A stretch of 55,466 bases of DNA from an uncultured delta proteobacterium (lineage in GTDB: Bacteria; Myxococcota_A; Polyangia; Polyangiales; JADJMO01). Below are positions 6,458 to 44,808 of this stretch, in pieces; the stretch's first letter is position 1; every line of letters begins with the position of its first letter. Below the pieces are notes generated by a model. That model was not told where the DNA came from and did no database searches. It saw only the letters and a list, made by a program, of their open reading frames with translations. The position numbers and the translations under genes were made by a program. The stretch lies in the NCBI GenBank assembly GCA_903923175.1, contig CAIXWQ010001095.1, positions 1-55,466 on the forward strand, written 5' to 3'.

Positions 6458-8580
6458 AGAACATCGACCCGCGCCGCGCCCGCTGGATGAAATTCCGCAT
6501 GGGCGTGCTGTGCGGCCTCCTCTCGACCGGGCTCTGCTCGATCGTCGCCAGCGCCTACAACATCCAGGTCAAGCACGGCGCCGAGTGGCGCATGATCGCC
6601 GAGCGTCAGCGGCAGAAGCGCCTCAAGGTGCTCCCGACGCGCGGCTCGATCCTCGACCGCAACGGCGAGGCGCTCGCCATCACCATCGACGTCCCTTCGA
6701 TCGCCATCAACGCGGCCGAGCTCGTGCGCAACGTGCCCGAGAAGCAGCAGCCCGCGCTCCAGGACGCGGCCGCCGCCAAGCTCGCCACCGCGCTGAACCT
6801 CCCGTTCCCCGAGGTGCAGGCGAAGCTCAAGTCGAAGCGGCGCTTCGCCTGGCTGAAGCGCCGGCTCAGCCAGGACGAGATCACCGCCGTCCGCGCGATG
6901 ATCGATCCGCGCAAGCCCGACGCCGTCAAAGGCGTGATGATCGAGGGCGAGGGGCACCGCTTCTACCCGGGCCGCGAGGCGCTCTGGGGGCTCGTCGGCT
7001 ACGTGAGCGGCGACGGCAGCGGCATCGACGGCGTCGAGCGCGCGTTCGACGAGGACCTGCGCGGCCGCCCCGACGAGATCTCCGCGCTGCGAGACCGCAA
7101 GGGGACGGTGCTCTTCGGCGACGGCCTCGAGGACGAGCGCGCCCTCGCCGGCGACGACGTGCACCTGACGGTCGATCTCGGCTTGCAGTTCCAGGTGCAG
7201 GAGGATCTCGAGGCGGGGCTGCGCGCCTTCGAGGCCAAGTCCGGCAGCGCGATCGTGATCGATCCGAACACCGGCGAGATCCTCGCGATGGCGAGCGCGC
7301 CGGTCTACAACCCGAACGACTACGGCGACGCGCCCATCGAGGCGCGGCGGAACCACGCCATCGCCGATCGCGTCGAGCCGGGCTCGACGATGAAGATCTT
7401 CACCATCGCGGCGGCGCTCGCCGAGGGGAAGATCAAGCCGACCGAGGAGATCTACTGCGAGAACGGCAGCTGGACGATCGGCGGCGTCACCATCCACGAC
7501 ACGCACCACGAGGGGATGCTCGCCCCGGCGTCGATCATCTCGAAGTCGTCGAACATCTGCGCGGCCAAGATCGGCCTCTTGCTCGGCGAGCAGGGGCTCT
7601 ACTCGGCCTTCAAGCGCTTCGGCTTCGGCGAGACGACCGGGCTCGGGTTGCCCGGCGAGGCGGCGGGCGTGCTGCGCGCGCGCGGGCGCCCCTGGTACGA
7701 GGTCGAGGTCGCGTCCGCGAGCTTCGGGCAGGGGATCAGCGTCACGACGCTGCAGCTCGGCATGGCGATGTCGGCCATCGCCAACGGCGGCAAGCTCATG
7801 GAGCCGCGGCTGGTGCGCACGGTCACCGGCGCGACCGGGCAGCTGGTGCGCGAGGAGCTGCCGACGGTGCGGCGCGAGGTCGTCCCGGCCTTCGCCGCGC
7901 GCATGGTCACCGAGATGATGACCGGCGTCGTCGAAGAGGGCGGCACCGGGCGCGAGGCGCACATCCCGGGCTACCGCGTGGCCGGCAAGACGGCGACCGC
8001 GCAGAAGGCCGATCCCGCCACCGGCAAGTACGACCCCGACAAGTTCGTCGCGTCGTTCGTCGGGTTCGTCCCCGCGCAGAAGCCCCGCTTCGTCATCGCG
8101 GTGGTGGTCGACGAGCCCTGGATCGCGCACCTCGGCGGCCAGGTCGCGGCGCCGATCTTCCGTCGGATCGCGATGCGCGCGCTCGCGCGCTTCGGCGTCG
8201 CGCCCTCGGGCGAGGTCGCCAAGACCGCGGTGACCTTCCCGCTCGAGGATCCGACGCCGCTCGTCTACGCCGAGGCGAAGGCGATGGCGCCCGACGTGGA
8301 TCTCACCGGCCCGGGCGGCTCGGTGGTGGCGCCGATGACCGCCCCGAGCGCGTTCGCGCCGCTGCCGGCCTCGTCGCCGTCGGCGCTGCCGGGCGCGCAG
8401 CGCGTGATCGTCCCCGATCTCGGCGGCATGGGCGCGCGCGACGCGGCGCACGCGCTCGTCTCGATCGGGCTGCTCCCCGTGTTCGACGGCACTGGCTCCG
8501 TGACTCGACAGGAGCCCGCGCCGGGCACGCTCCTCCTGCAGGGCTCGGCCGTCCGCGTCCGCCTCTCGCCTGGCTCGTGA
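6454..8580 (+). CDS. ftsI: Peptidoglycan D,D-transpeptidase FtsI/PBP3 with C-terminal PASTA domain
   Basis: PTRGSILDRNG, EPGSTMK (SxxK), SSN (SxN), AGKTATAQK (KTG-like), PASTA-like VPDLGGMGARDA...GSVTRQEPAPG. GTGA overlap with ftsL. Confidence 0.96.
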   Translation: MKNIDPRRARWMKFRMGVLCGLLSTGLCSIVASAYNIQVKHGAEWRMIAERQRQKRLKVLPTRGSILDRNGEALAITIDVPSIAINAAELVRNVPEKQQPALQDAAAAKLATALNLPFPEVQAKLKSKRRFAWLKRRLSQDEITAVRAMIDPRKPDAVKGVMIEGEGHRFYPGREALWGLVGYVSGDGSGIDGVERAFDEDLRGRPDEISALRDRKGTVLFGDGLEDERALAGDDVHLTVDLGLQFQVQEDLEAGLRAFEAKSGSAIVIDPNTGEILAMASAPVYNPNDYGDAPIEARRNHAIADRVEPGSTMKIFTIAAALAEGKIKPTEEIYCENGSWTIGGVTIHDTHHEGMLAPASIISKSSNICAAKIGLLLGEQGLYSAFKRFGFGETTGLGLPGEAAGVLRARGRPWYEVEVASASFGQGISVTTLQLGMAMSAIANGGKLMEPRLVRTVTGATGQLVREELPTVRREVVPAFAARMVTEMMTGVVEEGGTGREAHIPGYRVAGKTATAQKADPATGKYDPDKFVASFVGFVPAQKPRFVIAVVVDEPWIAHLGGQVAAPIFRRIAMRALARFGVAPSGEVAKTAVTFPLEDPTPLVYAEAKAMAPDVDLTGPGGSVVAPMTAPSAFAPLPASSPSALPGAQRVIVPDLGGMGARDAAHALVSIGLLPVFDGTGSVTRQEPAPGTLLLQGSAVRVRLSPGS

Positions 8581-10311: not shown

Positions 10312-11873
10312 TGGCGACCCCGATCCCCCAGAACCGCGCGCGCTTCCTGCTCGCCGAGCTCGCGATCGCGACCTCGGGCGTGCTCGTGCGCGGCGCCCCC
10401 GACGACGAGATCGTCGGCGTCTCGACCGACACGCGCGCCGTCGAGCCGGGCAACCTCTACGTGGCGCTGCGGGGCGAGAGCTTCGACGCGCACGACTTCG
10501 TCCCGCAGGCGATCGCCGCGGGCGCGCGGGCGGTGCTCGTCTCGCGCCCCGAGGTCGTCGAGGCCCTGCCGCCGGGCGTCGCCGCGATCTTCGTCGACGA
10601 CGTGCTCGCCGCGCTCGGCGCGCTCGCGCGGGCGCACCGTCGTCGCTGGGCGCGCGGCCGGCGCACGGCGCTCGTCGCCATCACCGGCTCGGTCGGCAAG
10701 ACCACCACCAAGACGCTCTGCCGCGCGGCGCTCGCCGCGCGCTTCGGCGACGACGGCGTGCACGCGACCGAGGGGAACCTGAACAACCGCGTCGGCGTGC
10801 CGATGACGCTGCTCGGGCTCGAGGCGGGGCACGCGGTCGCCGTCGTCGAGGTGGGGACGAGCGTGCGCGGGGAGATCGCGGTGCTCGCCGCGATCGCGGA
10901 GCCCGACGTCGCGCTGCTGACCGCGGTCGGCACCGCCCACGCCGAGGGGCTGGCGACCGGCGTCCCCGGCCCGCGGATGTCGCCGCGCGAGGCCGTCGCG
11001 CGCGAGAAGATGGCGCTGCTCGCCGCCGCGCCGCACGCCGCGATCGCGTGCGCCGACGACGCGTGGGCCCACGCGAGCCTGCTCGCCTCCAGGGCGGTGC
11101 GCACGCTGACCTTCGGGCGCGCCGAGGGCTCCACGTACCGTGTTCTCTCGCGCGCCCCGTCGGACGAGGGCAAAGCGCACGTCGTGATCGAGCGCCCGCG
11201 CTTCGGCGCGCCGGGGCAGGGGGCGCACGAGGCGCTCGAGCTCGAGCTCGGGCTGCTCGGCGACCACGCCGCCGTCGACTGCGCCGGCGCGATCGCCGCC
11301 GCCGACGCCGCCTCGGCGCTCGCGACCGGGACGCCGGTCGCCGAGGCGCTCCTCGCGGCCGGGCTCGCCAAGGTCGAAGCGCCGCCGGGGCGGCTCGCCC
11401 CGCGCACGCGCGAGGACGGCGCGCTCGTCCTCGACGACAGCTACAACGCGAGCCCCGCGGCGTTCCTCGCCTCGCTCGAGGCCGCGCGCGAGATCGCCGA
11501 GGCGACCGGCCGCGCGCTGGTGGTGGTCGTGGGCGAGATGCGCGAGCTCGGCGCCGAGGTCGTCGCGGGGCACGAGGAGGTCGGCCGCGCCGTCGTCGCC
11601 GCGCGCCCGCGCCTGGTCGCGAGCTGCGGCGGCGAGGCCGAGCGCGTCGCCGCCATCGCCGAGGCGGCGGGGATCCCGGTCGTGCGCAGCGCGTCGTCGG
11701 CCGAGGCCGCGGCGGCCGTCGCGCCGCTGATCGCGAAGGGCGACGTGGTGCTCGTGAAGGGTTCGCGCGGCGCGACGACCGAGAAGGTGGTCGCGGCGAT
11801 CTTGGCGGCGATCTTGGCCCCTGGCGCGCCGATCGCGGATTCCCACCGCGAGACCGCGCGAGGGGGAGCCTGA
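10311..11873 (+). CDS. murF: UDP-MurNAc-tripeptide:D-Ala-D-Ala ligase MurF
   Basis: VSTDTR, ALRGESFDAHDF, ITGSVGKTTTK, GNLNNRVGVP, DDSYNASP, GEMRELG, VLVKGSRG. TGATG overlap with murE. Confidence 0.96.
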   Translation: MATPIPQNRARFLLAELAIATSGVLVRGAPDDEIVGVSTDTRAVEPGNLYVALRGESFDAHDFVPQAIAAGARAVLVSRPEVVEALPPGVAAIFVDDVLAALGALARAHRRRWARGRRTALVAITGSVGKTTTKTLCRAALAARFGDDGVHATEGNLNNRVGVPMTLLGLEAGHAVAVVEVGTSVRGEIAVLAAIAEPDVALLTAVGTAHAEGLATGVPGPRMSPREAVAREKMALLAAAPHAAIACADDAWAHASLLASRAVRTLTFGRAEGSTYRVLSRAPSDEGKAHVVIERPRFGAPGQGAHEALELELGLLGDHAAVDCAGAIAAADAASALATGTPVAEALLAAGLAKVEAPPGRLAPRTREDGALVLDDSYNASPAAFLASLEAAREIAEATGRALVVVVGEMRELGAEVVAGHEEVGRAVVAARPRLVASCGGEAERVAAIAEAAGIPVVRSASSAEAAAAVAPLIAKGDVVLVKGSRGATTEKVVAAILAAILAPGAPIADSHRETARGGA

Positions 11874-11879
11874 GCCGCC

Positions 11880-13109
11880 ATGCTGTACGAGCTCCTCTAC
11901 CCGCTGCGCCACCACGCCCCGTGGCTCGGAGGCCTCAACGTCCTCCGCTACATCCCGTTTCGCGCGGTCGCCGCGACGCTGACGGCGATGTTCATGAGCT
12001 TCATGATGAGCCCCTGGTTCATCCGGCAGCTGCAGAACAAGCAGATCGGGCAGTTCATCCGCGAGGACGAGGCGGCGCACCACCAGATCAAGCGCGGCAC
12101 GCCGACCATGGGCGGCTCGCTCGTCCTGCTCTGCCTGCTCGTGCCGACCATCCTCTGGGCCGATCCGCACAACGTCTTCGTCTGGGCCACCGCCGCGGTG
12201 ACCGCCGGCTACGGCGTCATCGGCTACCTCGACGACTACCTCAAGATCCACCGGCGCAACTCGGAAGGGCTCGCCGGGCGCTACAAGCTCGTCGGCCAGT
12301 TCCTCGTCGGCGGCGCCGCGCTCGCCTACGTCTTCGTGCCGCGCGCCGGGCTCCCCGCCGACTGGCTGGCGATCCGCACGCACCTCGCGCTGCCGTTCGT
12401 CGCGTTCTCCAAGCACCCCATCATCCTGCCGGGGTGGCTCTACGTGATCTTCGCGCTGATCGTCGTGGTCGGCATGTCCAACGGCGTGAACCTCACCGAC
12501 GGCGCCGACGGCCTCGCCATCGGCCCGGTCATCATCAACGCCGGCACGTACCTGATCATCGCCTACCTCACCGGCGCGACGCTCGCCGGCGCGACGCTCG
12601 CGAAGTTCCTCAACGTCGCGCCCGAGGTCCGGACGGCCCTCTCGCACCCCGACGTCTACTTCTCGTTCGCGCGCTACCTCGACATACCCGCGGTCCAGAC
12701 GACCGGCGAGCTCACCATCTACTGCGGCGCCATGCTCGGCGCCGGCGTGGGCTTCCTGTGGTTCAACGCCTTCCCCGCCAGCGTCTTCATGGGCGACGTC
12801 GGCGCCCTGGCGCTCGGCGGCGGCCTCGGGATGTGCGCGGTGCTCACCAAGAGCGAGCTGCTGAGCCTCGTGCTCGGCGGCGTCTTCGTCGTCGAGGCGG
12901 GCTCGAGCTTCCTGCAGACGAGCTGGTTCAAGCTCACGCGGCGCTTCTCGCCGCTGCCGAGCGGCGAGGGGCGCAGGCTCTTCTTGCGCGCGCCGTTCCA
13001 CCACCACCTCGAGAAGAAGGGGTAGCCCGAGACCAAGATCGTCGTGAGGTTCTGGATCGTCACGGTGCTGCTCGCCCTGATCAGCATCGCCCAGCTGAAG
13101 GTGCGGTGA
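11880..13109 (+). CDS. mraY: Phospho-MurNAc-pentapeptide transferase MraY with in-frame TAG at 13023-13025
   Basis: [65 protein letters not shown]...LKVR. Homology continues in frame for 27 codons after the TAG, to TGA at 13107-13109. Confidence 0.95.
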
Positions 13110-13116
13110 GGCGGAC

Positions 13117-14517
13117 ATGAGCGGCAAGGAGCTCCGCGGCAAGCGCGTGGTGGTGGTCGGGCTCGGGCTCTCGGGCGAGGCGGCCTGCCGGCTCGCGCGC
13201 GCGAAGGGGGCCGAGGTGCTCGCCAACGACGCGCGCTCGCGCGCCCAGATCGGCGAAGGGGTCGCGGCCGGGCTCGAGGCCGAGGGGATCGAGCTCACGC
13301 TCGGCACCCACGCGGGGGTCGATCTGGTCGGGGCCGACGTCGTCGTCGTCTCGCCGGGCGTCCCCGCGATCGCCTTCCTCGCCGACGCCGAGCGGTACGG
13401 CGCAAACCTCGTCTCCGAGATCGAGCTCGCGAGCTGGTTCGTCGACGCGGAGCTCGTCGCCGTCGGCGGCACCAACGGCAAGAGCACCACCACCGAGCTC
13501 TGCGCGGCGCTCGCGCGCACCACCGGGCGCCCGGTCTTCGCCGGCGGCAACCTCGGCGTCCCGCTCGCCCAGGCGGTGCTCGAGAACGACCCCGGCGTCG
13601 GCAGCGACGGCATCGCGGTCGTCGAGGTCTCGTCGTTCCAGCTCGAGCGCGTGCGCGGCTTCCGGCCGCGCGCCTCGATCCTGCTCAACGTCACCGACGA
13701 CCACCTCGATCGCTACCCGTCGTTCGAGGCCTACGCGATCGCCAAGGCGGGCGCGTTCCGCGCGCAGCGAAAGGACGATTTCGCGATCGTCCCGCACGGC
13801 GACGCGCTCTCGGCGCGCGTCGCCTCGCTCGGCTACGCCACCCTCGAGACCATCGACGGCCCTGCGCCAGCGAGCGTCGGCGTCGAGGGCGATCGCCTCG
13901 TCGATCGCGCGCGCGGCGTCTCGATGCCGCTCTCGGCGCTGAAGCTCGCCGGGCGCCACAACGTCACGAACCTCGCCGCCGCGTGGGCCGCCATCCGCGA
14001 CCTCGGCGCCGATCCGGGCCTGTTCCAGCCGGCGATCGAGTCGTTCAGCGGGCTGCCGCACCGCATGGTGCTCGCGCGCGAGCTCGACGGCGTGCGCTGG
14101 TACGACGACTCCAAGGGGACGAACGTCGGCGCGGTGGTCACCGCGCTCGACGGCGTCACCGAGCCCAAGGCGGTGCTGATCGCCGGCGGCCGCGACAAGG
14201 GCGGCAGCTACGGGCCGATGATCGACGCCCTTGCCCGCAAGGGGCGCGCGCTCGTGCTCATCGGCGAGGCCGCCGCGGCGATCGAGGCCGCCGCCAAGGC
14301 GCAGCTCCCCACGCTCCCGATCGCGCGCGCGACCTCGATGGAGGACGCCGTGCGCGCCGCGCGCGAGCTCGCGCAGGCGGGCGACGCGGTGCTGCTCTCG
14401 CCGGCCTGCTCGTCGTACGACATGTTCAAGGACTACAAGCAGCGCGGCGATCTCTTCGTCGCGGCGGTGCAGGCCCTCGACGCGCGCGCGGCGCGTGCTG
14501 GCGGGGGCGCGCCGTGA
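13117..14517 (+). CDS. murD: UDP-MurNAc-L-Ala:D-Glu ligase MurD
   Basis: VVGLGLSG, VVSPGVP, GGTNGKSTTT, GGNLG, EVSSFQLE, LNVTDDHLDRY, YDDSKGTN, LLSPACSSYDMF. Confidence 0.97.
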   Translation: MSGKELRGKRVVVVGLGLSGEAACRLARAKGAEVLANDARSRAQIGEGVAAGLEAEGIELTLGTHAGVDLVGADVVVVSPGVPAIAFLADAERYGANLVSEIELASWFVDAELVAVGGTNGKSTTTELCAALARTTGRPVFAGGNLGVPLAQAVLENDPGVGSDGIAVVEVSSFQLERVRGFRPRASILLNVTDDHLDRYPSFEAYAIAKAGAFRAQRKDDFAIVPHGDALSARVASLGYATLETIDGPAPASVGVEGDRLVDRARGVSMPLSALKLAGRHNVTNLAAAWAAIRDLGADPGLFQPAIESFSGLPHRMVLARELDGVRWYDDSKGTNVGAVVTALDGVTEPKAVLIAGGRDKGGSYGPMIDALARKGRALVLIGEAAAAIEAAAKAQLPTLPIARATSMEDAVRAARELAQAGDAVLLSPACSSYDMFKDYKQRGDLFVAAVQALDARAARAGGGAP

Positions 14518-44010: not shown

Positions 44011-44808
44011 ATGTCCCGGGGCAAATACGCCCTCTTCGCCCTCGCCATCCTCGCGGTCTCCGCGCGGCCCGCGCACGCGCGCGCCAAGGCGGAGGAAGAG
44101 GCGAAATCCGAAGAAGAGAAGCCGAAATCGCCGCACCAGCAGCAGGCGTTCCAGCACTTCCTGCGCGCCCAGGAGCTGTACAAGCTCGGTCGCTACCGCG
44201 AGGCCATCGCGCGCCTCGAGGCCGCGGTGAAGCTCGATCCCGACGCGGCGGACCTCTGGTACAACCTCGGCGTCGTCCACGAGAAGCTCGGCGACGCCGA
44301 CGAAGCCATCGCGGCCTACGAGCGCTACCTGAAGCTGCTCGGGCCCGACGCCGACGCCGAGGAGCTGAAGCGGATCCGCGGCTTCATCCAGCGGCTCAAG
44401 GGCGCGCGCACCGACCTGAAGGATCGCGAGGCGAAGCGCATGGAGCACCGCTTCACGCCGCTGACCAGCACGCTCGCCATCAGCTGCGCGATCTCGCTCG
44501 CGGCGACCGGCGTGTTCTCGTACCTCGCGCTGCACGACGACCGCGCCGCCCGCGATTTCCTGGTCGGCAGCGGCGGCTCGCTCAACGGGCGCGCCGCGCT
44601 CGTGAACCGCGCGCGCACCGAGGGGGTGCTCGCCGACGTCTTCGGCACGGTGGCCCTCGCCACCGGCACCGCGGCGTTCACGCTCTACTTCACCTCCGAG
44701 TTCGCCAAAGAGGACGACGTGCGCGAGCTGCCGCCGCGCAAGGTCGGCTGGCTCGGCGTGACGCCGCTCCCGGGCGGCGGCACGGTGCAGCTCGGGATGG
44801 TGTTCTAG
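44011..44808 (+). CDS. Secreted TPR protein
   Basis: Signal peptide; TPR AQELYKLGRYREAIARLEAAVKLDP...LWYNLGVVHEKLG..DEAIAAYERYL; two hydrophobic segments; ends QLGMVF. Confidence 0.85.
   Translation: MSRGKYALFALAILAVSARPAHARAKAEEEAKSEEEKPKSPHQQQAFQHFLRAQELYKLGRYREAIARLEAAVKLDPDAADLWYNLGVVHEKLGDADEAIAAYERYLKLLGPDADAEELKRIRGFIQRLKGARTDLKDREAKRMEHRFTPLTSTLAISCAISLAATGVFSYLALHDDRAARDFLVGSGGSLNGRAALVNRARTEGVLADVFGTVALATGTAAFTLYFTSEFAKEDDVRELPPRKVGWLGVTPLPGGGTVQLGMVF

Follow-up and report, generated by a model that had tools for sequence, protein, structure and literature searches.

An in-frame TAG at the conserved tryptophan codon of mraY in a lake-water metagenome-assembled genome probably stems from thin read coverage

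In a metagenome-assembled genome (MAG) from lake water, the frame of mraY is interrupted by a TAG at a conserved tryptophan codon. This TAG is probably not a real feature of the organism, but an error or a one-molecule variant that thin coverage fixed in the consensus. The mraY of the organism itself would almost certainly read TGG at this place, and would encode a normal MraY of 409 residues and ten helices. This explanation is favoured by the thin data from a single run, other unsupported stops in the same assembly, selection on the sequence downstream of the TAG, and the lack of recoding machinery. The stretch of DNA analyzed here, hereafter the window, comprises 55,466 nucleotides with a G+C content of 73%, and is contig C1095 of a 10.7-Mb MAG that consists of 1422 contigs with a median length of 4.9 kb, at an estimated completeness of 95.6%.

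Table 1. Positions of the mraY locus, the gap in read words and the other in-frame TAGs (window numbering unless a contig or locus is named)
Feature	Position	Strand	Evidence or remark
mraY codons 1-381, through the HHH motif and LEKKG	11880..13022	+	TIGR00445
In-frame TAG at the conserved Trp codon	13023..13025	+	A at 13024, G in relatives
Last 27 mraY codons (final helix TM10) and the usual TGA	13026..13109	+	Tail comparison with P0001
murD, dcw cluster context	13117..14517	+	TIGR01087, 369 bits
Gap in words seen at least twice, run X1	12974..13003	.	Contig ends
In-frame TAG, 2-oxoacid:ferredoxin oxidoreductase	C591:142-144, locus L019	-	Inside the Pfam POR_N match
In-frame TAG, Kelch-like repeat protein	C917:9850-9852 = L024:451-453		In phase, variable position

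Translation of the frame at 11880-13109 on the forward strand yields 381 residues, the TAG, 27 further codons and a TGA at 13107-13109. The mraY model TIGR00445 (cut-off 192 bits) matches the truncated product with 288 bits and the product of read-through with 333 bits, and PF00953 gives a further match of 91.6 bits. The gene occupies the mraY position of the dcw cluster, between a Mur ligase gene, which its position suggests to be of the murF type, and murD, which starts 7 nt past the full-length mraY stop. The product was aligned with the MraY structures of E. coli (8tlu and 8g01) and A. aeolicus (4j72). In this alignment, the HHH motif falls on residues 372-374, the TAG codon is opposite the Trp at position 333 of the E. 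coli chain 8tlu_A, and the tail, with the TAG read through, aligns over its full length with E. coli MraY (8tlu) and carries the C-terminal LKxR. The gene is an ordinary mraY. In MraY, the HHH motif belongs to the cytoplasmic loop between TM9b and TM10 (PMC4790310); a stop at the TAG would therefore remove the whole last transmembrane helix. An earlier sequence-only reading of this DNA had proposed the same loss, and the E. coli MraY alignment bears it out, with TM10 following the HHH loop directly. That reading had also envisaged an intact mraY paralog elsewhere; the search of the genome gave no second copy, and mraY is thus single-copy here.

Comparison with related organisms revealed the interruption in none of them. 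The gene is present in 39 of 41 related genomes, and none of them has a stop at the codon aligned with the TAG; a distant mraY match in genome G020, with 42% identity, has a TGA at another place. The aligned codon is TGG in all 11 family- or order-level loci that were read. The closest relative found, P0001 of a large protein collection, derives from six contigs, shares 92% protein identity and has a tryptophan at this codon. At the DNA level, its locus L029 shares 89% identity with the window, and its genes follow the same order, namely Mur ligase, mraY, murD and ftsW. Contigs of related organisms in runs X14 and X20, from pond and soil, likewise have a G at 13024, one of the X14 contigs with eight differences in 197 nt. 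The comparison with close relatives that the sequence-only reading had called for thus gives TGG in 12 relatives, and upholds its claims that the TAG replaces a conserved Trp codon of mraY and that a single G>A change, at 13024, turned TGG into TAG.

Further analysis of the 27 codons downstream of the TAG revealed no sign of decay. The protein sequence of this tail is identical in the window and P0001, and the DNA differs from L029 by six synonymous and no non-synonymous codon changes (6/0), against 72 synonymous and 33 non-synonymous codon differences upstream of the TAG. The conservation of the tail, which had been noticed from the window alone, therefore holds at the level of codons. The 6/0 ratio indicates that purifying selection has acted on the tail throughout practically all of the divergence, and hence that the stop, if real at all, is very young.

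The read evidence at the site is thin. It was taken from Logan contigs of run X1, a lake-water metagenome, which are built from words present at least twice. Among the runs searched, X1 alone contains 31-mers over the TAG. Seven more runs from the study to which X1 belongs (X2, X3, X4, X19, X22, X23 and X27) leave 13012-13031 uncovered; coverage in X19 begins at 13032, and X27, in which mraY is not covered, has the allele of the MAG at 6759. No same-population contig with a G at 13024 was found. The X1 contigs at mraY are short, with mean word depths of 4.5 and 5.4, and they break just ahead of the TAG: one ends at 13003 and the next begins at 12991. These two contigs share 13 nt, fewer than k-1, which means that the 17 words across 12990-13004 did not reach a count of two. 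This gap in the words lies 20-33 nt upstream of the TAG. The words from 12991 on may thus stem from the two overlapping mates of one fragment that starts at 12991, in which case both mates would share one PCR or damage error.

These observations suggest how the A could have entered the assembly. We infer that it derives from an error or from a single molecule. It might be a sequencing, PCR or DNA-damage error, as G>A equals C>T on the other strand; alternatively, it might be a one-off variant present in very few molecules, perhaps in a single fragment read by both mates. In either case, the A would have become the consensus because this Polyangia population was sequenced to about 5x in one lake-water run, and locally to less. 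The variant is confined to the thin data of one sample, and like defects occur elsewhere in the assembly. Some points count against an artefact: the TAG lies in X1 words seen at least twice and in three other public assemblies, and a G contig of the same population was looked for and not found; if those words came from at least two independent fragments, a random error would be unlikely. A coverage of about 5x alone cannot yield a contig of 55 kb, so the window was probably produced by co-assembly, with X1 supplying the mraY stretch. One public record name, of a contig of the same population, bears a BioSample id and the label BUCK21-1, which suggests a data set that was assembled with MEGAHIT at default settings, both as single samples and as lake-wise co-assemblies (10.1101/2020.11.12.379446).

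Three further public contigs, 3.3-4.2 kb long, encode exactly the same product of 381 residues. Two of them, L027 and L028, were read as DNA, are 99.98% and 100% identical to the window, respectively, and contain the TAG; the third is known without its DNA. The record name of L027 refers to BioSample SAMEA6872954. Position 10999 is the start of two of the three contigs, and 14959 the end of two, and these shared end points indicate that the same reads were probably re-assembled by different pipelines. Given the 99.98-100% identity and the common end points, we rejected the three contigs as independent confirmation. The TAG is thus not the slip of one assembler, yet it is without independent confirmation. 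As several assemblers reproduce it, an error, if there is one, belongs to the reads or molecules rather than to the algorithm of assembly. Accordingly, the suggestion of a consensus or sequencing error in the sequence-only reading is favoured in part: the change was already in the reads of one run, and an assembler slip does not account for it.

One of these sister assemblies contains a deviation of its own. At 14339, in codon 408 of murD and 1.3 kb from the mraY TAG, L027 has a G that turns the ATG (Met) of the window into AGG (Arg). This methionine codon is ATG in all five relatives checked. The AGG, which occurs in a thin assembly of this population, probably reflects an error at a single base. 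The position 10999, at which two public single-sample contigs start, also marks a separate feature of the region. From 10998 on, the window is matched by contigs of X2 and X19, which have a different, shorter in-frame sequence before this position; the junction at 10998/10999, inside the upstream Mur ligase gene, reads ...VAHATGKDLV/AREKMALL... in these runs. It represents either a loop that varies between strains or species or a branch point of the assembly graph.

A real nonsense allele without function appears unlikely. Such an allele would have arisen recently in a lineage that is defective, dying or a relic, or its MraY, devoid of TM10, would somehow be tolerated. It retains some probability because the A is reproducible in the sole run that covers the site, where its words have a count of two or more and all assemblies of the sample contain it, and because no G allele of the same population has been seen; moreover, the undecayed tail fits a very young mutation. 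On the other side, mraY is essential in model bacteria and single-copy in this genome, and TM10 would be lost directly after the HHH loop. Selection also appears effective in this population. Over 20 kb, the X1 contigs differ from the window at 6759, 23239 and 23611 only, all of them synonymous third-position changes, and at 6759 X2 and X19 differ as well. These three sites are genuine strain microdiversity filtered by selection, and as all the strain differences seen are synonymous, the population is under purifying selection. A lethal variant should not reach a frequency that is caught by sampling at about 5x. In addition, the other in-frame TAGs of the MAG sit where read support is lacking.

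These other in-frame TAGs were found in a genome-wide screen for stop codons that are flanked, upstream and downstream, by a strong coding signal in one frame. It returned 28 cases, composed of 17 TAG, 10 TGA and one TAA, most of which are neighbouring genes, with a start codon a few codons away at most. Apart from the mraY case, two represent true interruptions, and both are TAG (Table 1). The TAG in the oxidoreductase gene, 144 nt from the end of contig C591, replaces the conserved Tyr of a GGYPITP segment by a TAC to TAG change, and the codon is TAC in all four relatives, including a genome of the same genus with 93% protein identity. The TAG in the Kelch-like gene lies among repeats of the form ...GPxxRSxHALAYD.... 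No X1 contig extends over either site, and locus L024 is uncovered at 423-506. The three in-frame TAGs thus replace different residues, namely Trp, Tyr and a variable repeat position. Computed from the codon usage of the genome, 75% of the possible nonsense substitutions lead to TAG; the predominance of TAG among the interruptions therefore needs no special mechanism.

The same screen provided two further observations. Three TAGs, at C357:1516, C1198:3490 and C1239:906, have a coding signal on both sides and no start codon near, and no Pfam domain was shown to span the TAG in any of them. In the window, a TAG at 44806-44808 is followed at once by ATG and separates open frames of 931 and 460 codons in the same phase, which look like two adjacent genes rather than one interrupted gene.

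If the TAG were real and decoded, whether by an amber-suppressor or pyrrolysine tRNA, by near-cognate read-through or by A-to-I editing of UAG to UIG read as Trp, the intact and conserved downstream frame and the preserved 7-nt spacing to murD would be accounted for. We regard this as very unlikely, and the machinery of the genome argues against it. ARAGORN predicted 71 tRNAs, one of which, of 93 nt at C749:3203-3295, was labelled tRNA-Pyl (cta) and speaks for decoding at first sight. This call is a GC-rich false positive, as the Rfam model RF00005 gives no match even at E<=1. By comparison, Rfam assigns 69.6 bits to the genuine tRNA-Trp(CCA) on C122. A 94-nt ARAGORN call of tRNA-Trp (cca) at C649:4523-4616 is also a false positive by the Rfam tRNA model. 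The pyrrolysyl-tRNA synthetase gene PylS is absent from this genome of about 95.6% completeness, in which the best TIGR02367 match, a frame resembling class II aminoacyl-tRNA synthetases, reaches 28.9 bits against a cut-off of 178. Loss of release factor RF1 was rejected too, with RF1 being split over the contig ends of C757 (140 bits) and C846 (403.8 bits). Neither a genuine CUA-anticodon tRNA nor a second mraY, the two items for which a genome search had been proposed, was found.

Moreover, TAG is used as a stop throughout the genome. Gene ends were called with a codon-usage model trained on the long open reading frames of the genome itself, and the 3937 confident ends comprise 3000 TGA, 872 TAG (22%) and 65 TAA. 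The coding signal is lost after the TAG gene ends. With 872 of 3937 confident genes ending in it, TAG is a routine terminator, in agreement with the earlier remark that it is a normal stop elsewhere. The amber-suppressor explanation offered in the sequence-only reading is therefore disfavoured by the Rfam result for the CUA tRNA, the absence of PylS, the presence of RF1 and the share of TAG ends. Decoding is also at odds with the different residues that the in-frame TAGs replace, and with the plain TGG of all relatives. By the same token, a genome-wide reassignment of TAG to a sense codon has a negligible probability. The three in-frame TAGs in conserved genes are all that speaks for it; termination at TAG in 22% of gene ends, with the loss of coding signal behind them, already refutes it, and RF1 is present. 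The in-frame TAGs align with different amino acids, and the relatives have no in-frame TAG in these genes.

The local RNA context offers no support for editing. TadA-dependent A-to-I editing of mRNA in bacteria is described for E. coli hokB, and its target is the A in the UACG loop of a stem-loop resembling tRNA-Arg. Here, the TAG lies in GGGG-UAG-CCCG, with the A in UAGC rather than UACG. The fold of the 61 nt at 12994-13054 is no better than that of shuffled sequence (z = +0.63), and in the minimum-energy fold the TAG is not in a loop closed by GGG and CCC. The GGG-TAG-CCC hairpin proposed from the window is thus weak and absent from this fold; GGG-TGG-CCC is also frequent in relatives, and the motif simply represents Gly-Trp-Pro codons in a GC-rich genome. 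The editing explanation consequently has no backing in either the target motif or the local structure. It is likewise highly improbable that the TAG allele is real and common in the lake population, with near-cognate or site-specific read-through of UAG keeping the last helix under selection.

The mraY TAG was compared with four known situations. Consensus errors in unpolished MAGs of low coverage resemble it in the single-base change, the single-copy essential gene, the one thin sample and the intact relatives, as well as in the further unsupported stops of this assembly and the probable error in the sister assembly; they differ in that the mraY base is reproduced by several assemblers and lies in words seen at least twice. 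Young nonsense pseudogenes of bacteria share the single transition, the change from a conserved TGG to a stop and the undecayed downstream sequence. Unlike them, mraY is essential and single-copy, the population is under purifying selection, and nothing indicates that the allele is frequent. Amber suppression and pyrrolysine decoding, by supE/supF-type tRNAs or by PylS and tRNA-Pyl, have in common with this case an in-frame UAG in an otherwise intact gene, whereas this genome has RF1, lacks PylS and a validated CUA tRNA, and commonly terminates its genes with TAG. TadA editing is alike in that an adenosine, if read as G, restores the conserved mraY codon, and differs in the UAGC sequence and in the absence of a tRNA-Arg-like stem-loop at the TAG.

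A real and decoded TAG would make this mraY a rare natural example of a bacterium that relies, for an essential gene, on read-through of a stop codon or on editing. As an artefact of thin coverage, which is the preferred explanation, it has a more general meaning. Agreement among several assemblies of the same reads does not amount to independent confirmation, and in-frame TAGs are the form that single-base errors are expected to take in GC-rich, thinly covered MAGs, as the proportion computed for this genome illustrates.
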